NCBI GenBank assembly: GCA_043822705.1 | Contig: JBDRBK010000122.1 | Coordinates: forward strand, 1-15,679 | DNA length: 15,679 nt | DNA from: Fidelibacterota bacterium | Lineage (GTDB): Bacteria > Fidelibacterota > Marinisomatia > Marinisomatales > TCS56 | Direction: 5' to 3' | The notes under the pieces: generated by a model | What the model was told of the DNA's origin: nothing | The model's database searches: none | The model's input: only the letters and a program-made list of their open reading frames with translations | Part shown: piece by piece, positions 2-13,461 of the stretch | How the letters are laid out: each line of letters starts with the position of its first letter | Position numbering within the stretch: the first letter of the stretch is position 1 | Program-made: the position numbers and the translations under genes

Positions 2-445
2 CTGCTGCACACATTCCATTACGCCTACCGCAACGATGAACTGCTGGCCGCGCGGGTGTCGGCCATCGCCGATGGCACCGGTCATCCCGATATGATCCAG
101 GATTTGAACGATCTGTCCCTGCTGGGCAAGGCCAATCCCGATCCGCTGACGGCGATCGGGTTCGATCTGACGACCCTGGATACGGCGGCGGCCACCGCCG
201 ATGAAATGGCGAGCCTGTTATCCGAAGCCACGGCCGTGCGCAGCGATCTGAACGCCGAGCGGGTGATCCGCGATAAGGCCTATACCTACCTGAAACAGGC
301 CCTGGATGAAATCCGCCAGTGCGGCCAGTACGTATTCTGGCGCGACGAGAGCCGCCTGCGCGGTTATGTCAGCCGCTACTTCAAGACCCGGCGTCGCAAA
401 AACAGCGGCAAATCCGAAGCCGCATCAGACAATACTGAAGATTAG
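2..445 (+). CDS. Hypothetical alpha-helical protein, 5'-truncated by the window edge
   Basis: The frame of the 56..445 ORF is open back to position 2 (LLHTFHYAYRNDELLAARVSAIADG...). Codon usage is GC3-rich, it ends at TAG 443-445 and a strong terminator follows. No family recognised. Confidence 0.8.
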   Translation: MLHTFHYAYRNDELLAARVSAIADGTGHPDMIQDLNDLSLLGKANPDPLTAIGFDLTTLDTAAATADEMASLLSEATAVRSDLNAERVIRDKAYTYLKQALDEIRQCGQYVFWRDESRLRGYVSRYFKTRRRKNSGKSEAASDNTED

Positions 446-676: not shown

Positions 677-925
677 GTAACCTTATGATTACGGACGTCA
701 GACTGGGATATAAACAGATCAGTGTTTATCTTTTGAATATGCCGGGAAGTTCTAATTCGCTCTTCCCGCATTATTCCCGGTTGGAAGCTACCGACAAAAA
801 TATATAGTCTTTGAACAAGCAAAAACTATATCTGAGTATCCTAATTTTCTCCTATAAATTACCATTTTTCGACTTCCACACTATACTGTTGTGCCACCAG
901 CATTCGACAGCCGTGTCAATAGGTA

Positions 926-1666
926 TTAGTCATTTCTAATATTTGGTTTTCTTCCACGATTTACTATTCCATTCGGTAATCGATAAAAATACTCAATAAT
1001 TACAGTTTGGGAAAATTTAATCATATTTACAACAGCATTACCAATTAATGAAATTGCCTTCTCTGTGGTATAACCAGTCTCCTTAATTCTTTGGTCAATT
1101 AAATTAATTCTAATGTCGTCAGCAAAAATCCATCTTGAATCTCCAAGAGCAGATCCTTTTTGATGTAACTCCCCAAATTGCTCGTCCAATTTTCCCCATA
1201 CATTTACCCAATCTTTTGAATCTAACGTAGGATAATGAATAAATATATCCCGAATTGGTTTGACAATTGTTTTTAAGAGCGATTCATCCCATGGCTCAAA
1301 ATCATTTTTCATTTGATTTAATTGATTTTCTGTAGAAAGTGGAAGAGATTCTATAAATGATGATATTTCCGGATGTTTTAGTGTTTTTGAATAATATTTT
1401 GCAGCTTCACGGTAATGTGCACATGTCAACCACAGATAATAAGATACTTCAGGTGTACCTTTTTGAGGATGTTTATCAAATTCATCTATCAAATTTCTAT
1501 TTGACAATATTAAATCGTTTGTGATTAAAGCCAATGTTGAAATCCAATTTGATAGAATTTTATTAGACGGAAAAGCATACTTAAATGGGAAATTAATCCA
1601 GTAACCAAACCTAAATAGATAGCTCATTTCTATTTTATTTATTAATCTTTTTATAGATAACAACAT
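926..1666 (-). CDS. Uncharacterised 246-aa protein with a putative HEPN Rx4H motif (gene cassette 2)
   Basis: Long ORF in very AT-rich DNA. Motif IRDIFIHY (R-x4-H, about 1235-1252) sits in an apparently helical protein. The ATG lies 7 nt after a GTTAGGT core site with no obvious Shine-Dalgarno. The HEPN call is inference. Confidence 0.75.
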   Translation of the reverse strand: MLLSIKRLINKIEMSYLFRFGYWINFPFKYAFPSNKILSNWISTLALITNDLILSNRNLIDEFDKHPQKGTPEVSYYLWLTCAHYREAAKYYSKTLKHPEISSFIESLPLSTENQLNQMKNDFEPWDESLLKTIVKPIRDIFIHYPTLDSKDWVNVWGKLDEQFGELHQKGSALGDSRWIFADDIRINLIDQRIKETGYTTEKAISLIGNAVVNMIKFSQTVIIEYFYRLPNGIVNRGRKPNIRND

Positions 1667-1673
1667 TAGCAGT

Positions 1674-1772
1674 ACCTAACGGTGTTGTAAATGACCGGCC
1701 AGGCCCATAATTTAACCGGTGGCTTTCCGATGTAATTCACTAATTCGGATCCGATTGATTTGCTGGTTATAC
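1674..1772 (-). mobile_element. attC-like integron cassette recombination site (99 bp)
   Basis: Minus strand: R'' GTATAAC (1772-1766, containing the upstream TAA stop), then CAGC-AAAT-C-AATCGG ... CCGGTC-ATTT-ACAACACC, then R' GTTAGGT (1680-1674). TAAC pairs with GTTA, AAAT pairs with ATTT next to one extrahelical base, and the length is within the usual attC range. The L'-R' spacer is a few nt longer than canonical. Confidence 0.7.
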
Positions 1773-3404
1773 CACATTATCGTTCTTGAATGTAAAAGTA
1801 TGTTTTATTGCTTTACCTTCTTTTAGCTTTGATTTTCTCGCCTCATTCCTTATTAAAAAAACAAAATTAAATATTGCTGATCGAGTAAATTGTAATATTT
1901 GTAGAGATTTATCTTCAAAATAATTTTTATCTACATATATCATATAAGGGCTACTTTTATAAATATTAAAAATATCCCCGCCAATTTCATTTTCACTCAA
2001 TAGGGAAAGTTGATTATGCTCTAGTGCATTCCTCCAAGACTTAAAGAAATACCACTCACCAGTTTTTGAATTCAAGTCAGTAGCTTGTGTATATAAGGCA
2101 ACTAAAGAAATATTTTGTATTGAGTTGATCTTATCCCAACGGGTTTTTTGTTTCGTCTTGGGTTTGCATTTTTGTGGTTTCCAGAAACTTTCAAAATAAA
2201 TTGACTCGTTCTCATCTGACAAGTCAAACATAAAACATATTGCACTAGCAATTTTATCTAGAATGCCAAAACACAATCTAAAACTAGTCCGAATCATTTC
2301 TGACTTGGTGCCTAAATATTCTGAATCATATAACTCAGTGAACATAACTTCAGAATCGTATTTAGTGATTTCATTTTGATTAGTGTCAATAGAGTAAAAA
2401 TAAAGTAACCTTGCAAAAGAATATTCCGATTTTAACCGATTTAATACTTTTTCCATTATAGGGATGAAATCAGAATCGAAGGGTTGAAAAGGAGTACATA
2501 TATTTAAACTATCTCGCCTAGCACCTATACAATTACAATATAATGAATGTTCGGATAAAGTAAGATGTTTGTTAATGCAAAACTGTCTATAAAGAGAAAG
2601 CGATTCGAATTCTTTTCTAGTTTCTTCAAGCTCTTGATGAATATTACTAATATCAAATCCGAGTTTGAGTAAAGAAGTTTTTAATTTGTGCGATTCCGAT
2701 TTCCATGTATCAATTAACCATTTAGGAATTTCTTTGGTCATAGATGCCTTTTTATAACCATTCTGTGCTTGATAAATCATATTTTTTGTAAAAACGCCGG
2801 ATATATCTTTTAATCGCATTAACTCTTTTGCACGAGAAGCATTGGCTTTAGGAAAGGATGGGTATTTTTCTAATACTTCATCATAATATTGCAGGGACTC
2901 AACAATACGACCACAACAACTCAGAGTATTTGCAAGGTTTACTACCAACTGTGGGGTAAATGTTCCCATTTCGTCAATAGATAATTTGAATGATTTCCAA
3001 TAATGATTCTTTGATTCTATTAAATACTGGATATTTTTAGGGAAATATTGAAATCCAGTTTCTTCTCTTTGTATTTTGAATAAAGTACTTTTAGCATTTC
3101 CTAAATTGTATTCAATGCTACTTTCTAAAATAATATGTTTTATTTCCTCTTTTTCATTTTCTATTATTTGGAGTCCATCGAGAGCAGCTTGTTTTATTTT
3201 ACCTTCTTCTCCGATATCAATTAGAAAGCCAGCTAGTTCGATCTTTAAAAAATAATCCTCTCTTGTTTTACAATTCGTTAAGCTTTCTAAACGTTTACTT
3301 ATTTTTTCAGTGGCAAGTATATAATCCCTATTATTGTAAAGAATAGTGATCTCGTCAACCAACTTCTTATCCGATTCTGAATAATATTTGGAAAGTTTAT
3401 TCAT
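1767..3404 (-). CDS. LA2681-family-like HEPN domain protein with an N-terminal TPR region (gene cassette 1)
   Basis: 545 aa, AT-rich. TPR-like segment VVNLANTLSCCGRIVESLQYYDEVLEKYPSFPKANASRA. C-terminal motifs YRQFCINKHLTL, LNRLKSEYSFAR, SFRLCFGILDKIA and WRNALEH (Rx4H, about 2016-2033) match my recollection of LA2681-like HEPN proteins. Confidence 0.85.
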   Translation of the reverse strand: MNKLSKYYSESDKKLVDEITILYNNRDYILATEKISKRLESLTNCKTREDYFLKIELAGFLIDIGEEGKIKQAALDGLQIIENEKEEIKHIILESSIEYNLGNAKSTLFKIQREETGFQYFPKNIQYLIESKNHYWKSFKLSIDEMGTFTPQLVVNLANTLSCCGRIVESLQYYDEVLEKYPSFPKANASRAKELMRLKDISGVFTKNMIYQAQNGYKKASMTKEIPKWLIDTWKSESHKLKTSLLKLGFDISNIHQELEETRKEFESLSLYRQFCINKHLTLSEHSLYCNCIGARRDSLNICTPFQPFDSDFIPIMEKVLNRLKSEYSFARLLYFYSIDTNQNEITKYDSEVMFTELYDSEYLGTKSEMIRTSFRLCFGILDKIASAICFMFDLSDENESIYFESFWKPQKCKPKTKQKTRWDKINSIQNISLVALYTQATDLNSKTGEWYFFKSWRNALEHNQLSLLSENEIGGDIFNIYKSSPYMIYVDKNYFEDKSLQILQFTRSAIFNFVFLIRNEARKSKLKEGKAIKHTFTFKNDNVV

Positions 3405-3412
3405 ATTGATAA

Positions 3413-3419
3413 GTATAAC
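3413..3419 (-). mobile_element. Cassette core (recombination) site GTTATAC at the start of cassette 1
   Basis: GTTATAC lies 8 nt upstream of the ATG and is the exact reverse complement of the GTATAAC inverse core site at the end of the same gene, as expected for an integrated gene cassette. Confidence 0.6.
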
Positions 3420-3594
3420 CGGGCTGTAGTTTAGCCCCGACTCGTAAGAAAATTTTCGTTTTATGTAAGCTTATCTACTCCATTCAAGAGTTTGTAGCAC
3501 TATGCGACCTTAAAAAGCAGATGTTCTCCGCAGCATTGTTTGTATTGGCACTAGTTGGTAGATTATTCTGAATAGCATTTCATTTAAATCCTAA

Positions 3595-3762
3595 ATGATC
3601 ATCCACTCCCCGGAAACAATCGACAGCGTGGTTCCCGCATCCGGTATCGTGAGCGAGTTTAGCTACTTAAGGGACTGGCTGCAAGCGCTATTTGCTATTG
3701 TCCAGAATGTATCGAAAGGAATTTCGAATCTACGGCACACTGCCGCTACAATAGTGTTATAA
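3595..3762 (+). pseudogene. Possible decayed tyrosine-recombinase fragment (55-aa ORF, absent from the ORF track)
   Basis: Translates as MIIHSPETIDSVVPASGIVSEFSYLRDWLQALFAIVQNVSKGISNLRHTAATIVL*. NLRHTAAT resembles box II (HxLRH) and SGIVSEFSYL resembles box I (TGxRxSExxxL) without the Arg. The spacing is far too short for an intact enzyme, and the resemblance could be chance. Confidence 0.25.
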
Positions 3763-3969
3763 CCGTTTTAACGGTTTATTGATGGTAAGGCCGCAAACGG
3801 CCTATAGTATTATTAGCTAATACTTTCCCAGCCCTTAAGAGCCGGGCTTTGGAATTGGCATTTGGCTGCCCAGTTAGGAATGTCATGACTACTGTACCCG
3901 TCAATTGACAACTACCTGGTGACTCTACTCCTAATCCACTCCGTTCAGCCCCTCCGCTCATTACTCCAT

Positions 3970-4001
3970 AAAAAAAGCCCAATCAACTGACCAGGCCTTT
4001 T
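3970..4001 (-). terminator. Probable rho-independent terminator after the tRNA
   Basis: Minus strand AAAAGGCCTGGTCA-GT-TGATTGGGC-TTTTTTT: a stem with several G-U pairs followed by a 7-T run, directly 3' of the tRNA. Confidence 0.6.
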
Positions 4002-4003
4002 AG

Positions 4004-4078
4004 TCGGGGTGGGGAGATTTGAACTCCCGACCTCTTCGTCCCGAACGAAGCGCGCTAACCGGGCTGCGCTACACCCCG
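4004..4078 (-). tRNA. tRNA-Pro(CGG)
   Basis: Minus strand CGGGGTGTAGCGCAGCCCGGTTAGCGCGCTTCGTTCGGGACGAAGAGGTCGGGAGTTCAAATCTCCCCACCCCGA. Acceptor stem CGGGGTG/CACCCCG, anticodon arm CTTCG-TTCGGGA-CGAAG, T-loop TTCAAAT. CCA is not encoded (followed by CTA). Confidence 0.98.
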
Positions 4079-4196: not shown

Positions 4197-4781
4197 TTAA
4201 AAAATATGGGAATTCAAAATAACGGTCGGTCCCTCTCCCGCTGCTCTTTTAATCAGGCCGACACCGGGTGCAAATATATGGAACATCTCATCATCCACAT
4301 ATTGTGGAATGTCGAAAAACAATTCAATACAGTCGTAGAATTTTCCGGCGGGAGTCTCGACGGAATCCAGAGTGCTCGATGTTATGCTGAAATAAGCCTC
4401 GCTGCTACCTGAACCGACCGGATCAATATAGGTGCCACCGTCCGCCAGCGTGAAATCATAAAAAAGGTAGTCCTGTCCGTTGCGGTATCTGAATACCCTG
4501 TCTTCCCCTTCCGGACGTAAGGTGTCGTTAAACACAACCGGGTTTGCTTCATTATACCGCCGGGTTTCCGTCATGATAAAATACCGTTTGTCTCCGATTT
4601 GGATTTGTCCGGTGACCTCACGTTTCATACAAGGATTATCCGGCGATCCGGTTTCATCGTACAGCCAGACATACCCCAACTCCAGCGGGAATTAATTTTC
4701 AATATTTTCTTCGTTATCGGCAGTGTTACATCCAAACCCGGCCAACAGAACAATGAGTATTATTAATGTTTTTCGTCTCAT
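4197..4781 (-). pseudogene. Lipoprotein gene (194 codons) interrupted by an in-frame TAA at codon 30
   Basis: ATG at 4781 gives MRRKTLIILIVLLAGFGC (signal peptide, lipobox Cys18) NTADNEENIEN*FPLELGYVWLY, in frame with the 4197..4679 ORF. The stop at 4692-4694 sits where Tyr of a YFPLxxGxxWxY motif is expected. Downstream VETPAGKFYDC and FAPGVGLIK motifs are typical of this beta-rich secreted or lipoprotein type. Confidence 0.8.
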
Positions 4782-4812
4782 ATTATCGTGTATCGTACTT
4801 GCGGCCGTACTG

Positions 4813-5730
4813 TCACAGACCTAAATAATAAGTGATGCCAAGCGAAATAACATTGGCAAATGTATAGTCGTAATCCACCTGATCTTTATAGTAGACTACA
4901 TAATAACCACCCATGACCGGAACATCGTACCTTGTGTACGAAGCTTTTATTGCCTGATAGTCCAACCTCAGACTGGTTCGTTTAAAGAGAAACAACTCCG
5001 CCCCTAATCCGAAAGAATGTATTGCGGAACTGCGACTCCAATCTCCTGCTCCTTTATATTCACCCATGTCATACCAGGTTGCCGTGCTCGCCAAAGTAAC
5101 GGCGTAGCCCATGCTATCAGCATATTCGGTTGCCGCAGAATGAAAAGACTGCCAGCCCTGGCCGATGCCAAACGATCCGTACAAACAGAGATTAAGATCT
5201 TTGAAAGGAAGAACGCCGAGGATCAATCTGATTTCCCACTGCGAATTCTGGCGTTCTGTCTGGGGAAAACTCAGGTCCAAAATGTCATGCGTTGTATACC
5301 AGTCGCCGCTGACCGTGTCGACGTTGTGATGTGATCCCTCAAATTGTTCCGAACCGTCGGGATGAGAAATCCGGCCGTAGCTGCCTTCAATAGCGGCCAG
5401 GAACCAGTCCCAATGCGTCTGCCACCCGACCGCACACCCCAACCCCGGTGCCGGCTGAGGACTATTAAAGCCCTGTGGGAAAAAGGAAGAGCCGTTAACG
5501 ATAGCATTTCCGGTAGCGAGGTGCACTTCATATTGTGCCGGGTATGAAACACTGGAGTATAATGATTGTTGTACGGTAAAATAATAGCCCTTCGCAATTC
5601 TGCCTTCTCGTGGTTGACCTCGAAGCCCGGTAAATCCAAGTACAGCTATTATGAAACATAAGGCGGAAGGACTAAATCTGACCACTCGATGCAGAGTGAA
5701 TATGTAGAAGATATTTATATGAGCCTCCAT
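4813..5730 (-). CDS. Putative outer-membrane beta-barrel protein
   Basis: 305 aa with an N-terminal hydrophobic stretch, amphipathic beta-strands (GLGCAVGWQ, LYGSFGIGQGW, FGLGAELFLFKRTSLRLDYQ) and a C-terminal ISLGITYYL strand. Start codon uncertain. Confidence 0.7.
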   Translation of the reverse strand: MEAHINIFYIFTLHRVVRFSPSALCFIIAVLGFTGLRGQPREGRIAKGYYFTVQQSLYSSVSYPAQYEVHLATGNAIVNGSSFFPQGFNSPQPAPGLGCAVGWQTHWDWFLAAIEGSYGRISHPDGSEQFEGSHHNVDTVSGDWYTTHDILDLSFPQTERQNSQWEIRLILGVLPFKDLNLCLYGSFGIGQGWQSFHSAATEYADSMGYAVTLASTATWYDMGEYKGAGDWSRSSAIHSFGLGAELFLFKRTSLRLDYQAIKASYTRYDVPVMGGYYVVYYKDQVDYDYTFANVISLGITYYLGL

Positions 5731-5935
5731 TCGAAAAGGATAGCATTGGCCGGGCCGCCTGACATATGCTTACCGGACTTGGATCCTGTCGGACCTGCCG
5801 GTGAAGTAATGGTTAATATAAGTGATTTTCTGTTGGTTATCATACCTGCGCATAATACCGTAACTCCCTGTTAATCGAAAGTTATATAGCCGACATCTGT
5901 AAAGCAAAAGGAATATTAGCGTTAATGGGCGCTCT

Positions 5936-6550
5936 TTAAACCAGATATTTTATCAGCACAAAGCCGCCGACCAGCAGGATCGTGAAAACGATCACCACCA
6001 GGTTAAAATAACGATCGATGAACTCCCGGATCGATTCGCCGAATTTCCAGATCAGTCCCGCCACTAGAAAGAAGCGCGCCGAGCGGCTGATGATCGAGGC
6101 GATCAGGAACAGCGGGAAATTAATGTCGAAAGCGCCGGCGGTAATCGTGAAAACCTTGTAGGGGATCGGCGTGAAACCGGCGGTAAAGATGATCCAGAAA
6201 TTCCATTCGTTGTATTTATCCTGGATGCTGTAGAACAGCGTTTCGGTAAAGCCCGGAATGTGGGCGAAAAAGAACTGCGCCAGACCGGAAAATTCGGCGC
6301 CGTTGCTCCACCAGGCGAACTGGCCGATCAGGTAGCCGAAGATCGCCCCCAGCACCGAGGCGGCGGCGCAGTTGAGGGCGAAGCGGAACGATTTCGCCAG
6401 CGCTCCCAGGCACAGGGCGATCAGCAGGGCGTCCGGCGGCACCGGGAAAAAGGAAGCCTCGGCAAAGGCCAGGATAAACAGCGCCAACGGTCCGTAGGGC
6501 GACTCCGCCCAGCTTAATACCCAGTCGTACAGTCTCCGAAAAATCTTCAT
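5936..6550 (-). CDS. DedA/YqaA family (SNARE-associated, VTT domain) membrane protein
   Basis: Motifs LAFAEASFFPVPPDALLI, SVLGAIFGYLIG and AGFTPIPYKVFTITAG...RSARFF. ATGA overlap with the upstream gene. Confidence 0.93.
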   Translation of the reverse strand: MKIFRRLYDWVLSWAESPYGPLALFILAFAEASFFPVPPDALLIALCLGALAKSFRFALNCAAASVLGAIFGYLIGQFAWWSNGAEFSGLAQFFFAHIPGFTETLFYSIQDKYNEWNFWIIFTAGFTPIPYKVFTITAGAFDINFPLFLIASIISRSARFFLVAGLIWKFGESIREFIDRYFNLVVIVFTILLVGGFVLIKYLV

Positions 6551-7224
6551 GTCCAGAAAAAGCTCCTAAACCAGAGTTTAATGAATCGCAGCGTATCCTT
6601 GGAATTATTCATCTGCGTCGGTTCATCCCCGTAAACGGCAGGAATCGGGCGGTGGACGATCCGGTAGCCGCGCAGCGCCGCCCGGATCAACATTTCGCTC
6701 TCAAACTGGAAGCCGCCGGTCACAAAAGCGCTGTCCGTAAACAACGCCACCGGAAAGGCCCGGAAACCGCATTGCGAATCCTTGATGACGCTGTTGGTCC
6801 TGACAGATATGAATAAACTGGTGAGGAAATTAGAAATTTTACGCTGCAGTGGCATGGTTTTTCTGTCCCGGCGATAACCGATCTGAATCCGGCGCGGCTG
6901 GAAATCCAGGAAATCGCGCAGATACTCCGGCGGGTGCTGCAGATCCACGTCGATAACGATCACCTGGCCGATGCCGTGACTGCGGGCGTACTCCAGGCCG
7001 CTACGGATGGCCGCGCCTTTGCCACGATTGCCGTCATGGCTGATAAAACGGCTGCCCAGGGCGCTAAGTATGTCCCGGCCGGCATCACTGCTGCCATCAT
7101 CGATAAACAGCAGCTGCGGGCGGAATTCGGGCGCCACCCGCTGATAGAACCGGCGGATGTAGTCGGCGCCATTGTAAACCGGCACCAGGATCAGGTAGTC
7201 TTCAGGTGTTTTATTCGATGGCAT
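6547..7224 (-). CDS. Glycosyltransferase family 2 (polyprenol-phosphate glycosyltransferase / DPM-synthase-like)
   Basis: Motifs ILVPVYN, FIDDGSSD, NRGKGAAIRSG, DVDLQHPP (DxD), DSQCGFR and FESEML. Confidence 0.93.
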   Translation of the reverse strand: MPSNKTPEDYLILVPVYNGADYIRRFYQRVAPEFRPQLLFIDDGSSDAGRDILSALGSRFISHDGNRGKGAAIRSGLEYARSHGIGQVIVIDVDLQHPPEYLRDFLDFQPRRIQIGYRRDRKTMPLQRKISNFLTSLFISVRTNSVIKDSQCGFRAFPVALFTDSAFVTGGFQFESEMLIRAALRGYRIVHRPIPAVYGDEPTQMNNSKDTLRFIKLWFRSFFWT

Positions 7225-8455
7225 AATCCAACCGGGAATTTACTCCCTCCCGCTCGCCGATCAGGCGCGCCTGATTATCGAACCGCAACAATTTCCAGGA
7301 ATAAACCTGGTTCACGATAAAAGCCTGTTGGCCGCTGCCCGGCAAAACCTGGATGCCGTTCAAATGGCGGTATTCATCTCCCAGCAATATCGTTTCCGCG
7401 CCCGCGCTGAAAAATCCGGTTTGCCACTCGCCGGTCTCACGATTATACCCGGTGTAGTAACAGTCACCGGTGACGGGATTGACACTGATATCGTAGACTT
7501 TGAAATTATTGCGCATGATCGACAGTTCGTTGTCGGCGTTAATCGTTGCCAGGACCGAATCACCGCCAACCCAGCAACCGCCGTGAACGGGATCGGCCTC
7601 AAGCTCGGCGACGCCGGCGATGCCGCTCCGGCGCTGCGGGTTAGCGCTATCGCCCAGACGATAAGCCAACACCTGGTCGCTGCCGGCCGTCAGCCAGACC
7701 GCATTAGTCACCGGATCGTAGGCCAGGTCATGCCAACTGGAAACCGGATCGAGCAAGTTGACGCTCTGCAATTCCGTGCCGGTGCCGGAAAAAACCACGA
7801 TTGAGCCGGGATCGCCGGTCAGCAATACGAAAAAACGGCCGGTTTGCCGATCCTGCGCCAGCGCCACAGGGTTGCCGTCGAGCCGGATTTCCGACTGGAT
7901 TTCCAGACTGTCATTCAATTGCTGCAGCGACCGGTTCCAGTAATCGGCCACGATCGCCTGCCGGGCGGCAGCCAGATATTCCACCGCTATCGGTGATGTC
8001 AACTGGGCGCTGCCCAGCGCATAACGTCCGTCATAGGTCAACCGGTGAACGGCCATGTCATAAAAATCGGCAATCCAGATATTCAGCGGTCCCGGGATGA
8101 TCGTGACCGTATCCGATACGGTTCCAAGATCAAAACTGGTCCGCGCCTGCAGGCAATAACGATAGGTGGTATCATATTCGATCGCGCTATCGCTAAATCG
8201 GGCGGTTGGCTCGGCTACCGAATCATACAGTACCCAGGCGGAATTCCCGCTTTGCCGGAATATCCGGTAGTCCAACAGATCATCGACCACGACGGGATTC
8301 CAGGAAAGCGTCACCGTTGCCCGGTCGGACACGATCCGCACACCGGAGGGCGCGCCACCGGTCACGGGATTGACGGGATCGAACGGGTTCAACCGTTCCC
8401 GCTCCGAACAGCCGTAAAGTATAATCATGGCGGTAATTAGAAGTACTGCCCGCAT
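7211..8455 (-). CDS. Lipoprotein with an FN3-like domain and a C-terminal beta-propeller-like region (414 aa)
   Basis: Start moved to ATG 8455 (MRAVLLITAMIILYGC lipobox; immediately after the upstream stop at 8457). Followed by NPFDP, FN3 features (VTLSWNP, YRIFR, FSD...YDTTYRY) and repeated blade-like motifs (IWIAD, PVALAQD, LAYDPVTNAVW, ISVNPVTGDCY). Confidence 0.85.
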   Translation of the reverse strand: MRAVLLITAMIILYGCSERERLNPFDPVNPVTGGAPSGVRIVSDRATVTLSWNPVVVDDLLDYRIFRQSGNSAWVLYDSVAEPTARFSDSAIEYDTTYRYCLQARTSFDLGTVSDTVTIIPGPLNIWIADFYDMAVHRLTYDGRYALGSAQLTSPIAVEYLAAARQAIVADYWNRSLQQLNDSLEIQSEIRLDGNPVALAQDRQTGRFFVLLTGDPGSIVVFSGTGTELQSVNLLDPVSSWHDLAYDPVTNAVWLTAGSDQVLAYRLGDSANPQRRSGIAGVAELEADPVHGGCWVGGDSVLATINADNELSIMRNNFKVYDISVNPVTGDCYYTGYNRETGEWQTGFFSAGAETILLGDEYRHLNGIQVLPGSGQQAFIVNQVYSWKLLRFDNQARLIGEREGVNSRLDYAIE

Positions 8456-8456
8456 A

Positions 8457-8861
8457 TTAATCGGAATTGAATGACCGGACCACCAGCAAAAGCCCGGCTT
8501 CGGCCAGCACAAACGCCGTTCCGGCGTAGCGATCGTAATGCGCCGCCCGCTGGAATGACCGGTCCATTTCTTCAACACTGCCGGTAACCAGGTAATCCCG
8601 GTAATTATCTTCAGCCTGACGGCTGTAATGATAGGCCAGCAGGCCGAATACCGTCATGACGGTCAGACCGGCGCTGCGCTGGCGGTTCCAGGTCAGCTGC
8701 GGTCGCGGTGCGCAATCGACTTTGAAGGTGTCATAAACGGTGGTGCAGGTAGTGAATATCGAATCGATCGCTGCCGGGTGGTCGAATTGTTTGGGTTCGT
8801 TTCGGGCAAAGACCAGCGTGCAGGTGATCACGATGGCAATGGCCGGGGCCGGTATTTTCAA
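8457..8861 (-). CDS. Hypothetical exported or membrane protein (134 aa)
   Basis: Fills the operon gap exactly (TTG start just after the upstream stop). Signal-like N-terminus and two C-terminal hydrophobic segments flanking AEDNYRDY. Confidence 0.75.
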   Translation of the reverse strand: MKIPAPAIAIVITCTLVFARNEPKQFDHPAAIDSIFTTCTTVYDTFKVDCAPRPQLTWNRQRSAGLTVMTVFGLLAYHYSRQAEDNYRDYLVTGSVEEMDRSFQRAAHYDRYAGTAFVLAEAGLLLVVRSFNSD

Positions 8862-8867
8862 ATCGAC

Positions 8868-9974
8868 CTACCTCAGATAATGCAGCCGGTTGCGGCGATC
8901 GGCGATCAGCAACCCGTCGCTGGTCAGGTCGAGCGAACGGATCACATATTCGGTGTCGTGATGCCACAATTCCCGGCCGGTCAGGCGGTCCAGTGCGACG
9001 ATCCGGCCGCGGGCGAATGGCACGATGATTACATTGCCGGCGATCAGTAGTGGCTGGTTGACCAGTCCCTGCCCCTGAAACTGCCACTGCAACTCCCCGC
9101 TTTCCGGATTTATCGCTGACACAAATCCGCTGCCATGAGCGCAAATTACCAGTTCGTCGTTGATCAACGGACTGGTATATATCGGCCCATCCAGTTTGGT
9201 TGCATAGATTAATTGGCCCGCCGCCAGGTCGCAGACTACCAGCCGGCCGTGGGCGTCTCCGGCCGCGATCCGGTCGCCGGTAATTGCCGCCGACAGTGAT
9301 TGGTCCAGATCCAGCGACAACGGTTCCAGCGGCTCGAGCCCGGTGGTAAACCGATGCAGGTTACCGGTCGTGGAAAAAACAGCGATCGTCCCGCCGGAAA
9401 TGTAAAATTCGCTGGCGAAATCGACCGGCAAGGCGCGCCGTGCGATAAATTTTCCGTTGGCGGCGTTACCGGCGACAATATTCCGCTGCTCCTGATAAAA
9501 AACCAGACTGTCGATCACGGCGATTGCTCCGGGGGCCTTAAGCTTGCGGTTGCGCCACAGTTTTTTCTGCAGACTGAAATCATAGGCCGAAATCAGGCCG
9601 TCGATAATGGAACTGAAATACAGCCGGTTGCCGTCGATGCAGTGATTTGAGATCGGCTGGCGATAGGGTTGCCAGACCCGGCCCTGGCGCTGCCCCTGAT
9701 TCAGGTCCCACAAATATATTTCGCCGCGATAGGATAAAATCAGTGCCAGATCCTGGTTCAACACTTCGATCGCCACCGGCGGCGAAATCATTTTCGCACT
9801 CCACTGCAATACCGGCTGGACGGTTAAATCCCGGCTGCCGCTTACCGGTTCTTCGCTCAGGTCGATACTGTATTGCAGTTTACCGACACATCCGGAGGCC
9901 GCCAACACTAATAACGTGAGCAGCAGGCCGCCGGCCGTTCGAACAAAATATTTATTGGTGGACATCATCGTCAA
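8868..9974 (-). CDS. PQQ-like beta-propeller repeat lipoprotein (BamB-like)
   Basis: Lipobox LAASGC and repeated A-x-D/N-xx-(T/S)G-xxxW motifs (AINPESGELQWQF, ALDRLTGRELWH, AYDFSLQKKLW). The true start may be the ATG at 9968 or 9965. Confidence 0.88.
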   Translation of the reverse strand: MTMMSTNKYFVRTAGGLLLTLLVLAASGCVGKLQYSIDLSEEPVSGSRDLTVQPVLQWSAKMISPPVAIEVLNQDLALILSYRGEIYLWDLNQGQRQGRVWQPYRQPISNHCIDGNRLYFSSIIDGLISAYDFSLQKKLWRNRKLKAPGAIAVIDSLVFYQEQRNIVAGNAANGKFIARRALPVDFASEFYISGGTIAVFSTTGNLHRFTTGLEPLEPLSLDLDQSLSAAITGDRIAAGDAHGRLVVCDLAAGQLIYATKLDGPIYTSPLINDELVICAHGSGFVSAINPESGELQWQFQGQGLVNQPLLIAGNVIIVPFARGRIVALDRLTGRELWHHDTEYVIRSLDLTSDGLLIADRRNRLHYLR

Positions 9975-12796
9975 TAATCCCAGCCGAAGAAGAACTGCAC
10001 AAACCAGTCGCGGTCGATCGTTTTGAAATCGGTATGGCGGCCGATATCCAGGCGCAGCACTACCCCGCCCAGGAACAGTCCGCGTAACCCGAAGCCCATA
10101 CTGCCGATCAGGTCGGGCCTTTCATTATCCCAGGCATTACCGGCATCCACAAACAGGGCGCCACGGATCGGGCTCACGCCAATCCCGCCGCGGCTGAAAT
10201 TAAGCATCAGACTGTGAGCCAGCGGGAAGCGCAGCTCCTGGTTGAACATCATGTACTTGCTGCCGTAAATATCGTACAGATTATAGCCGCGGATGCCCCA
10301 ACTGCCGCCGATGTAGTAGCGCCGGATATCCTCGCCGTCATTGATCCAGATCATCGTCCGCTGGGCGAAGGTGACGAATTGCCGGATCCGCAGATAATAG
10401 CGCGAATCGATCAGTCCGGTCAGATTGTGCAGCCGGCTCTTTTTCAGGTCGATCGTCGGACCAATTGTCAGGCGCAGGCGCCAGCCGTCGATTGGCCCGG
10501 TATAGTACCACAGGGAATTATCGTGGATGAAAGATACGAAATTGGATAACAGGACCGTCGACCTGGTGTTGTTGAAATAGAAATCCTTGTAGGAGTACCA
10601 GAAAGTACCGCTGAATTCCAGCCGCCGGAAAACATCCAGCGGGTAATTGATGCCGCCACGGATTCCGTACGTCCGCTCGAAATAAAAGGCCTGGTAGGGA
10701 TCAAAATAGTCATTGGCGAAATGGAAGATTCCCAGCGCCAGGTTGGAGCGGCCGGTCAGATCCACCATCGTGACCGCGAAATTGAAACGTCCCAGAAAAT
10801 CGCCGGAAGTCTGGGCGGTGTTGGTCAATAGAAAATGGTAATAGCGGTTCCCCAGTAAATCGGAAATGCTGAGCTGGGCGCCCCCCAGCACGCCGTAGAT
10901 CGGATCGTAGGCCACTGCGGTCTGGGCCAGATCGAGACTGTAACGCAGTTTGTATGGTTCTTTTTTCCGGCTGATTGTCGTTGGGATTGTAGGCGGAGAC
11001 CAGCCCTTAACAGTCGAACGGCTGAAGGTCGTATCGATCGGCGTAGAGACGGAAAATTCACTCAGCGGCAGTCGGTGAATCTGAAAATTGTATTCCTGAA
11101 AGGAACTCACCAGCAAAGAATCAGCCGCCAGCGGCACGATATCGTGAATCCCGGTGTGAACATTGGTTAACTGCTGCAATTGCACGATATGTCGCGGTTC
11201 GTTGTCGCTGATCCGAACCGACCAGATATTGGGCGTCCCGGACCGGTCCGAGATAAAATATATCAATTGTTGGTCGGCAGTGGACCAGCGCGGATATTTT
11301 TCCTGGTATTCATCCTTGAACAGCATTTTCAACTGCCGCGTCGCCAGATCAAGGATAAACAGGTCGGTTCCGCCATCGAGAATTTCCCGGCCACGGTCCG
11401 ATACGAAAACAACCGCACTGTCGTCGGGACTGAAAGCAGGATCGCTGTCGCAATAGATATCGGCCGTCAGGCGAATGGCGGTGCTGCTGTCGACGGTCCA
11501 GATATACAGGTCGGCCAAACCATTGAAATTCTGGGCGCTGAACACGATTTTAGCGTCGTCGTGGGACCAGACCGGAGTTCGGATCGAAATAATCTGCGGG
11601 TGACTGAAAGAAGTGATTTCCTTGCGGGTGGCCAGGTCCACGACCCGGATTACGTCCTGTTGTCCCGATTTGGTTACATACGCCAGCTTACCGTCCCGAC
11701 TGACATTCAACCCGGATTGGGTGATATGCAGCGATTCGAATTCGGCCCCACGCTCACCCTTTAACACGGTCTTCTTTTTCCTGTCGTCGACGTCCAGACT
11801 CTGCGAAAGAATATCGGTGTAACCGCTCCGACTTGATAAGTAAACCAGGTGTTGATTGCCCAGATGGTCGTAATACAGGGCGGGACTGACATTGGTGCCG
11901 GTTTTGGTCAACTGGTTCTCGCCGTTGCCGATGACGAAATCCTGTTGCAGCGGTTCGGCCATCTGTTTTTTGAGCGCCAGGCGCCAATCCAGCATGAGCG
12001 TAGTAAATTCCTTGCCGGTCACACCTTTGATTGTTTGCTCGAAATTTTCGTAGCGCCAGTAATCCTCCATCAGCCGACGGATATCATCGGTTCCATAGGT
12101 TTCTTCGAAATATCCCAGAAAAGATTGGCCTTCCTTGTACAGTAAAAACCCGGCCCGATACAGCGCTTCGCTATCCAGCGGATACAAATGATCGTACAGC
12201 AACGCGTCCCGAATCACCATTTCGGCCTGGGAATCCCAGTTGCCGGACCATAGATCGGCCAGTCCTTCGGTAAACCACAACGGGAAATTGGGCGATTCCC
12301 ACATGCCGATATCGCTGGAAACGTAGGAAATTTTGGCATGCGTGAAGGCATGCACCATTTCATGGCGGATCACCTTGCGGAAATCAAACATATTGCCGTT
12401 GAAGGGAATGACCACTCTTTTCTTGATATACTCGATGAAGCCCCCGACTCCCTCCGGAATATGATAGGGCAGGATGTTTGTCTGCTGGAAATGAATATGA
12501 TTGCTGTAGACCACCAGCGGAATTTTTCGACTGAAGGTACAATTGAATTTCAATTCCAGTTCACCAAACGCCTCCTCGGCAAAATAGGCAGCCACCTGCC
12601 CCAACTGCTCTTCGCCGGTGTAATAGTAGAGATAAAAATGCTCGGTTTCCAGCACCTGCCAATCAAAATCCTCGTACTGTATCTTATTGCGGCCGAAATA
12701 AAACTGACCGGTCATAACGACCGGCAGTAACACTATAATTGCCAGAGATAACACTGACAGCCCGCCCCGGTATTTTACAGATTGTGTTTTATTCAT
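9971..12796 (-). CDS. Omp85 (BamA/TamA) superfamily protein fused to an N-terminal gluzincin-like metallopeptidase domain and PD40/TolB-like propeller
   Basis: Signal peptide and FGRNKIQY. HEMVH (HExxH, 12350-12364) plus PLWFTEGLA as third Zn ligand. PD40 repeats (PVWSHDD, PAFSPDD, PRWS). Barrel motifs YYIGGSWGIRGY and FVDAGNAW, with terminal FFFGWDY. Confidence 0.9.
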   Translation of the reverse strand: MNKTQSVKYRGGLSVLSLAIIVLLPVVMTGQFYFGRNKIQYEDFDWQVLETEHFYLYYYTGEEQLGQVAAYFAEEAFGELELKFNCTFSRKIPLVVYSNHIHFQQTNILPYHIPEGVGGFIEYIKKRVVIPFNGNMFDFRKVIRHEMVHAFTHAKISYVSSDIGMWESPNFPLWFTEGLADLWSGNWDSQAEMVIRDALLYDHLYPLDSEALYRAGFLLYKEGQSFLGYFEETYGTDDIRRLMEDYWRYENFEQTIKGVTGKEFTTLMLDWRLALKKQMAEPLQQDFVIGNGENQLTKTGTNVSPALYYDHLGNQHLVYLSSRSGYTDILSQSLDVDDRKKKTVLKGERGAEFESLHITQSGLNVSRDGKLAYVTKSGQQDVIRVVDLATRKEITSFSHPQIISIRTPVWSHDDAKIVFSAQNFNGLADLYIWTVDSSTAIRLTADIYCDSDPAFSPDDSAVVFVSDRGREILDGGTDLFILDLATRQLKMLFKDEYQEKYPRWSTADQQLIYFISDRSGTPNIWSVRISDNEPRHIVQLQQLTNVHTGIHDIVPLAADSLLVSSFQEYNFQIHRLPLSEFSVSTPIDTTFSRSTVKGWSPPTIPTTISRKKEPYKLRYSLDLAQTAVAYDPIYGVLGGAQLSISDLLGNRYYHFLLTNTAQTSGDFLGRFNFAVTMVDLTGRSNLALGIFHFANDYFDPYQAFYFERTYGIRGGINYPLDVFRRLEFSGTFWYSYKDFYFNNTRSTVLLSNFVSFIHDNSLWYYTGPIDGWRLRLTIGPTIDLKKSRLHNLTGLIDSRYYLRIRQFVTFAQRTMIWINDGEDIRRYYIGGSWGIRGYNLYDIYGSKYMMFNQELRFPLAHSLMLNFSRGGIGVSPIRGALFVDAGNAWDNERPDLIGSMGFGLRGLFLGGVVLRLDIGRHTDFKTIDRDWFVQFFFGWDY

Positions 12797-12862
12797 CGAA
12801 CTTCGCGGTCATTGGTTTATCGGCGATCCATGGAAGTCTGTTGAACAATCGTACCGGTGCGG

Positions 12863-13336
12863 TCAACTCGGTAAAATTGTTATTAATGCCATAAAGGACA
12901 GGGCAAATAATCCTGCGCCGCTGAAGGTGTTGAACAGGCGCAATTGCTTGCTGGATGTCAGATACTCCTGGAGATAAATATTCTGATATTCAATACTCTG
13001 GAGGCGCAGATGATTGCGGCGGTTGACCGGCAGGTCGACTTTTTTCTTGTAGGCAAAATACGATGGTACGCCGACGATAAGAACCACCTCCAGAGCACGG
13101 CTGCGATAAGGATAGTCCGGCACCAGACTCGATCCGGTCAGGAACAGGCTGCAGAACTCGAATCCGCCACAGCGTGTGAGCCAGGGTTTGACCTTGAAAT
13201 CATCGACGGCATCACTGCGGGCCTGTTTGCGAATTTGTTCATCATTCAAACCGACGACCTGCCCGAACAGCAGATTGAATATTATTAAGCTGATTAGACA
13301 TAAATAAATCCAGTGCCTGCAACCAGATTTTGTCAT
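12863..13336 (-). CDS. Hypothetical membrane protein (157 aa)
   Basis: Co-oriented ORF filling the gap, with a signal-like N-terminus and central and C-terminal hydrophobic segments. Confidence 0.7.
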   Translation of the reverse strand: MTKSGCRHWIYLCLISLIIFNLLFGQVVGLNDEQIRKQARSDAVDDFKVKPWLTRCGGFEFCSLFLTGSSLVPDYPYRSRALEVVLIVGVPSYFAYKKKVDLPVNRRNHLRLQSIEYQNIYLQEYLTSSKQLRLFNTFSGAGLFALSFMALITILPS

Positions 13337-13461
13337 TTTTATTTCAATCCCAAGGTATTTATGTATTAATCCTTTTTCCGCCGCGCCGAAAATAGAGCAG
13401 TTATAATGATATCTGCCATTAAAAATATGTCAGCGGTCTTATTAGGAGTCAGGAGGCTGTG

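Follow-up and report, generated by a model that had tools for sequence, protein, structure and literature searches.

A probable two-cassette integron remnant with two predicted HEPN ribonuclease genes in a Fidelibacterota metagenome-assembled genome

Are two AT-rich genes near a tRNA gene of a Fidelibacterota bacterium the remains of an integron, and do they form a defense system of their own? The stretch of DNA analyzed here (the window, 15,679 nucleotides) is the whole of contig C122 of a metagenome-assembled genome, G000 (3.34 Mb, 218 contigs, 93% complete, 6% contaminated, 52.7% GC). Other G000 contigs are written as C with a number, relatives as G and fetched loci as L. An AT-rich island of approximately 31% GC at positions 800-3600 holds two open reading frames (ORFs), both on the minus strand and at 30% GC, as expected from the original prediction of co-oriented AT-rich ORFs in a GC-richer genome. 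ORF1 (3404-1767) encodes a 545-aa protein with TPR repeats and an LA2681-like HEPN domain, and ORF2 (1666-926) encodes a 246-aa solo helical protein. These had been taken for cassettes of an integron without a local integrase and, beyond that, for the best candidate in the window for an undescribed system, one of defense RNases. We consider it about 80% probable that the locus is a two-cassette integron remnant with one weakly folding attC site, a decayed attC on each side and no intact integrase gene (intI) in the assembly, whose genes probably went in as separate insertions by an integrase since lost and each encode a predicted HEPN ribonuclease.

The anatomy of the two genes is that of cassettes in most of the respects originally proposed. 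The core sites GTTATAC (3419-3413) and GTTAGGT (1680-1674) lie 8 nt ahead of the ORF1 ATG and 7 nt ahead of the ORF2 ATG, respectively, and the claimed lack of a ribosome-binding site holds, since no Shine-Dalgarno-like run precedes either ATG. The end core of ORF1, GTATAAC (1772-1766), includes its stop codon and is the exact 7/7 complement of its start core. The motif proposed for the same role after ORF2, TACCTA, is present at 925-920, but its match is probably incidental, because alignment to true attC sites places the ORF2 end core 4 nt upstream, at 931-925 and over the stop codon, which leaves TACCTA out of step with the attC relic there. An exact complement between start and end cores was found in 4 of 79 ORFs below 40% GC, where shuffling the pairing 200 times gave 0.31 on average and never more than 3. 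The remaining three of these ORFs are cassettes too. Across all ORFs the count was 9 of 2,526, against a shuffled mean of 3.5 (maximum 9). A promoter scan stayed at background (12 versus 13.7), with none on the minus strand at 3420-4000; expression is therefore likely to be low, and the genes may be nearly silent.

The 99 bp between the genes (1674-1772, minus strand, with the plus strand as the bottom strand) are by their sequence probably a real attC site and probably a poor substrate. Such sites are defined by L'' and L' arms that pair on the bottom strand, by a base outside the helix and by a central spacer left unpaired (PMC2727003). In this case, R'' lies at 1772-1766 and R' at 1680-1674, the L arms carry one extrahelical base, and the spacer between R' and L' is longer than most. 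Candidate attC sites were extracted from 53 intI loci fetched from relatives, and a reference set of 35 was chosen by eye (30 of 45, plus 5 from a second list), with noise-like rows and two near-duplicates dropped. When a model of position weights and pairing was trained on this set and run on AAC...GTT pairs genome-wide, 1674-1772 ranked 6th of 46,018 with a score of 36.3; each of the nine others in the top ten falls at the end of a cassette-like gene, on C13, C60, C66, C93, C135 or C199, and the pair at rank 11 scored 27.2. A covariance model built from the same 35 sites matched exactly 1674-1772, over its full length and with the plus strand as bottom strand, as its sole match in the window, and its 11 better matches are other attC sites of G000. 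The arms pair at 7.5 of 9 positions in a 9/12 register, which is shared by 6 of the 35 references, these being sites of G002 and G060 that belong to complete integrons. In complete integrons of the phylum (L095 in G060, L114 in G151 and L019 in G002), the R-L spacing of attC varies by up to 3 nt, and this variation may depress scores in standard models.

The length of the predicted 99-bp palindrome stands, as probably does its attC identity, but it is not notable as a palindrome, as the spacer folds no better than shuffles without constraint (z of -0.13 and -0.03 for its two strands) and pairing is confined to the R and L arms. Under constraint, the bottom strand can form the R and L arms with a G bulged out, the kind of extrahelical base that the original check called for, and with the central spacer open, but this is not a stable hairpin. 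No signal came from folding the spacer or either flank without constraint, and a first strict attC scan returned four unrelated matches with the middle site below threshold. The right-arm pattern of this site was matched in 251 genomes no more often than a reversed control, the spacer DNA had short chance-level matches only in 40 relatives, and an Rfam scan returned nothing but tRNA.

The two genes and their spacer are as originally described, but the array is larger, with attC relics on both sides that were recognized by homology only. The decayed attC of cassette 2 (843-931, minus strand) retains the left arm and variable region of an approximately 131-bp attC type of relatives, with an unrecognizable right arm and an end core over the stop codon that has lost its C (TAAC to TAAT, 931-925). 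An attC in G010 matches it at 64% identity across 87 nt (E 2.3e-4), and its score of 58 exceeds anything reached by 300 shuffles (at most 44.4) or by 500 AT-rich stretches of the genome (at most 45.8). A group II intron or insertion sequence end at 920 had also been considered, and was dropped after the attC relic was aligned there.

Upstream of ORF1, the right arm of an attC-like relic (3413-3545, minus strand) gives the GTT junction of cassette 1, while its left arm is decayed, with a best arm pairing of 6.0 of 9 versus 7.5 for the middle site. The relic was found in 4 of 351 genomes, including G000 itself and two short within-gene matches. It has a copy on C81 (77% over 121 nt) and a partial copy in G187 (81% over 73 nt), and each ends immediately ahead of a gene, with a GTT core in the window and in G187 and with GAT on C81. 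The C81 copy (C81:6087-6225, L043) has near-perfect 12-bp inverted ends without an unpaired spacer and stands behind an attI-like stretch and ahead of an AT-rich gene for 152 aa; this copy could represent either an empty cassette or a repeat element of small size.

Directly upstream of this relic lies the distal part of an integron platform (3555-3715, minus strand), of which copies precede two attI-like sites on C13 and one on C40 (z of 11.6, 9.7 and 5.8 for the three copies). Similarity to the intI-attI regions of G025 and G010 is weaker and in AT-rich DNA (z of 5.2 and 3.5). The platform sequence may hold a putative cassette promoter. By comparison with the C13 and C40 copies, the attI core is absent from the window, and neither 40 relatives nor plasmids matched the region upstream of the array. 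A tyrosine-recombinase-like heptapeptide at approximately 3725-3750 (plus strand) was tried as an intI remnant and rejected, as it had no Pfam or IntI-profile support when stops were read as X. The first residues of the short plus-strand frame that contains it (3595-3760) are found again in the platform copies on C13 and C40.

As predicted, profile searches found no intact intI in the window. The proposed search of the wider genome gave no TIGR02249 match over cut-off in G000 and did recover related attC sites, in at least seven further cassette loci that lack an integrase and have attI-like sites of two types: C13:14900-17720, C40:16400-17510, C60:81900-88700 (about seven cassettes), C93:5980-8060, C199:13820-15400, C135:1073-1158 and C66:13115-13178. 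The C93 locus keeps a 30-residue C-terminal fragment of intI ahead of and co-oriented with two cassettes. On C165, a piece of a recombinase gene at the contig edge was rejected as intI; it adjoins a tRNA and is without IntI features. The contig of the window ends 0.9 kb downstream of the array, and intI would be expected upstream, where 12 kb are present. Among relatives, intI was found in 16 of 40 overall and 5 of 8 of the same family, and in a sample of the phylum it was found in 79 of 251 genomes. The core complement, the attC model rank, the covariance match and the flanking relics support one claim of the original prediction, that of integron cassettes without a local integrase. We found no account in the literature of an integron attC in Marinimicrobia or of a locus of this type in the phylum, which is not proof that none exists.

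The HEPN motif predicted for ORF1 was confirmed by a match to PF18733 well above cut-off (136 bits versus 27, E 1.3e-39) and by an invariant R-x4-H. The motif is R458-N-A-L-E-H463, and R458, N459, E462 and H463 are conserved in 53 of 53 homologs in an alignment of 53 of the 120 homologs listed. TPR matches are weak in ORF1 itself and are annotated in its homologs, of which there are 469 at E<=1e-20; one close homolog is in a record titled Candidatus Neomarinimicrobiota. The LA2681-like family and its TPR fusion were listed in 2013 by Anantharaman et al. (PMC3710099), where the definition of HEPN and integron-borne HEPNs are also given. We found no functional test of an LA2681-like HEPN in the literature, and ORF1 is by its sequence a predicted single-gene candidate for a phage-defense function. 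The family is present in 4 of 301 phylum genomes, and distant homologs adjoin a helicase or recombinases on plasmids. A 64%-identical homolog in L045 has an attC-like left arm over its stop codon, as judged by eye; L128 has the same arrangement and was not counted as independent. Close ORF1 homologs lie directly 3' of a restriction-modification-like gene, with a duplicate of that gene's 3' end after them (L045:560-2500 and L046:3300-5200), which suggests a repeated insertion site at the tails of such genes. We take the genes preceding the nearest homologs to be of the type IIG restriction-modification kind.

ORF2 has no Pfam, NCBIfam or PADLOC match, yet belongs to a family of 540 representatives (50% identity) at E<=0.001. 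The HEPN motif proposed for it takes the form of a near-invariant E87 (114 of 115 members) and R139-x4-H144, with R139 in 114 of 115 and H144 in 115 of 115. The alignment of 115 comprised 4 from an earlier set and the rest from 150 listed, with fragments and fusions left out. In a confident structure model (mean predicted local distance difference test score of 94.5), ORF2 is helical, with E87 in helix 72-95, R139 in helix 130-143 and H144 just after, all at places typical of HEPN proteins. The top structural match is 3jrt (Z 9.4, root-mean-square deviation 4.5, 146 aligned residues, 10% identity), and other HEPN-type chains follow (7ae2 and 1jog, Z 8.1; 1ylm and 5yep, Z 7.7). ORF2 is very probably a member of the HEPN superfamily, and likely an HEPN RNase of an unnamed family. 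A PDB sequence search matched no solved HEPN, and a protein atlas gave no family name, only a lead to HEPN_AbiU2, seen in 11% of one cluster at 0.86. Plasmids held no match, and among 301 phylum genomes the family is in G000 only. No account of it was found in the literature, where supplements to papers may list cassettes of the LA2681 or ORF2 type. The true start of ORF2 could be Met14.

If the two genes were a single system, they would be expected to travel together. Instead, none of 8 outside loci holds both: within the flanks fetched, an ORF2-family gene was found in 0 of 7 ORF1-family loci and an ORF1-family gene in 0 of 1 ORF2-family locus, so the genes look like independent cassettes and not like a conserved pair that always occurs linked without attC flanks. 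The proposed check of both genes against defense libraries returned no PADLOC (model set dated 2023) or NCBIfam match for either. With integrase-less arrays being common, at least seven sister loci in the same genome, the ORF1 family named in 2013 and the genes unlinked elsewhere, the claim of an undescribed system was not sustained. From what is known of HEPN proteins, both products are predicted to be RNases and may act against phages. HEPN-like anti-phage cassettes, Taranis and Esos, have been tested in V. cholerae (10.1101/2024.07.02.601686), and HEPN systems that serve as a further model are described in PMC13092281.

Several observations weigh against the reading of the locus as an integron remnant with two HEPN RNases. 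The reference set behind both attC models was hand-picked by the analyst, and 29 of 35 held-out true sites (range 2.4-59.0) outscore the middle site, which places it in the low tail of true sites. Its covariance match is weak (16.9 bits, E 0.22 in 76 kb) and not significant alone, and the same model finds neither relic in the window. The probability of folding both the R and L arms is 1e-3 versus a reference median of 0.38, with only 2 of 35 references lower. The assembly, at 93% completeness and containing two mixed populations, could be missing intI for those reasons. On the protein side, the closest ORF1 homologs with known context (64% and 59%) sit behind restriction-modification genes and not in arrays, and the sole ORF2 homolog locus (L044) has no attC match. 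The HEPN structural matches of ORF2 are tied with unrelated four-helix bundles, Pfam HEPN_Cthe2314 matches only 2 of its 115 family members, and no defense-library match was obtained for either protein beyond single weak matches among 115 (ORF2) and 53 (ORF1) family members.

Other explanations of the locus were considered, and we hold each to be improbable. The incompleteness of the assembly, with its 218 contigs, leaves room for an intact intI in an unassembled part or on a visiting mobile element, by which still-live cassettes would be shuffled among scattered platforms. CALINs (attC-site clusters that have no integron-integrase) are overcounted in draft genomes (PMC9024848), five of eight family relatives have intI, ORF1 and ORF2 are unbroken, and several sister attC sites score like those of complete integrons. 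This we find unlikely, as the arrays on C13, C40, C60, C93 and C199 are internal to their contigs and have ordinary genes at the expected position of intI, the fragment on C93 shows a real loss, and the sites in the window are eroded. It is somewhat less probable that the cassettes landed near tRNA-Pro at a secondary site of the attG type in the chromosome, where no platform had ever existed, a route that can give rise to small CALINs and to SALINs, or single attC sites lacking integron-integrases (10.1101/2022.09.11.507474). The window has no intI remnant or attI core and five relatives have no cassettes by the same tRNA, both of which would fit, but an attC-like relic, by its right arm, makes up the first junction, which is not plain DNA, and directly upstream of it is platform sequence common to three attI-like sites.

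Poorest of all are the chances of a two-component defense or toxin-antitoxin operon with incidental attC-like features. Its genes would be co-oriented, equal in GC and both HEPN-like, as ORF1 and ORF2 are, but an attC lies between them, none of the eight outside loci holds the partner gene, the families differ in spread across the phylum genomes (4 of 301 versus G000 only), and there is no profile similarity between the two proteins. A more ambitious proposal, which we regard as rather unlikely, is that the lineage keeps dispersed integrase-less docking platforms loaded with defense cassettes by visiting IntI, and that stand-alone HEPN RNases acting against phages form a widespread family, so far uncatalogued, of which ORF2 is the first member carried by a cassette.

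For the favored integron remnant, the sequence of events may be proposed as follows. IntI would have inserted each cassette at G/TT, behind an attI platform whose far end would survive at 3555-3715; the platform would then have lost intI and the attI core, and the attC sites would now be drifting and recombining rarely. Each protein would dimerize to form an R-x4-H active site that cuts RNA, halting growth upon phage infection or stress. The TPR part of ORF1 may serve as a sensor, and ORF2 may work alone.

Among known kinds of locus, the array most resembles a CALIN in its co-oriented promoterless genes, attC-derived bounds, small size, lack of intI nearby and a host assembly without intact intI. 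The default requirement for two or more attC sites (PMC4889954, PMC9024848) makes its membership borderline, and with one whole attC and two relics a program would be likelier to call a SALIN; a surviving platform part upstream is a further difference. According to Cury et al. (2016, PMC4889954), half of CALINs are in genomes without intI, and published counts give 2,961 CALINs, 1,362 of them with two cassettes, and 3,400 SALINs (10.1101/2022.09.11.507474). SALINs at attG, as described in the latter work by Loot et al., are similar in having a single recognizable attC and no integrase. They sit at a GWT point in ordinary chromosome with no other att site, whereas here the insertion point is an attC relic next to platform sequence, and there are two genes and three sites. 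Nor was the arrangement of a complete integron, intI beside attI, found here. ORF1 is like other LA2681-like HEPNs (PF18733, PMC3710099) in its domain above cut-off, conserved R-x4-H and N-terminal TPR fusion, and differs in being in a cassette. ORF2, like the integron cassette HEPN 3jrt and like Taranis and Esos (10.1101/2024.07.02.601686), is a small solo HEPN-like cassette gene; it is only 10% identical to 3jrt with no sequence match to a solved HEPN, and Taranis and Esos are likened to it by description only.

The locus is probably an ordinary decaying CALIN or SALIN, a known kind, in which only the ORF2 family is still unnamed. The array itself carries little weight, being one more small integrase-less cassette cluster. 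ORF2 represents a large HEPN-like family without a Pfam, NCBIfam or PADLOC model and is a single-gene candidate for phage screens. The genome also illustrates integron decay, with intI common in relatives while at least eight loci of G000 keep cassettes without it.

The array was also described as lying downstream of tRNA-Pro. The tRNA-Pro(CGG) gene is present (4003-4078, minus strand), but no link beyond proximity was found; it is a conserved neighbor of dedA at 5 of 5 relatives' loci, none of which has ORF1 or ORF2, and appears as a bystander. A tRNA-targeted island was considered and dropped, there being no second tRNA-Pro(CGG) 3' end in the assembly, though the contig ends. In G004, two tandem 120-bp units downstream of the same tRNA each contain the tRNA 3' end (L122:12780-12949). 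Between dedA and tRNA-Pro in the window (4197-5730, minus strand) are two genes without a Pfam match (160 and 305 aa), which are absent at the five relatives' loci.

Window positions 4783-13338 have a second copy, 91% identical, on C140 (C140:10-8656, L120), so the bin mixes two related populations, and some of the sister arrays may belong to the second. Among sequencing runs that share the locus sequence, no RNA run was listed. Three DNA runs contain short identical pieces, one spanning 3329-3607, and were not used as support because they possibly come from the source campaign. On the other side of the array, convergent with it and outside the cassettes, is the 3' part of a GC-rich hypothetical gene (2-445, plus strand), truncated at the contig end, with no Pfam match and a single copy in the assembly. 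It is followed by a strong terminator-like hairpin (477-505) within approximately 400 nt that hold no clear gene (445-840), and on C199, too, the cassette has a GC-rich gene after it, which is short and comes with a long spacer.

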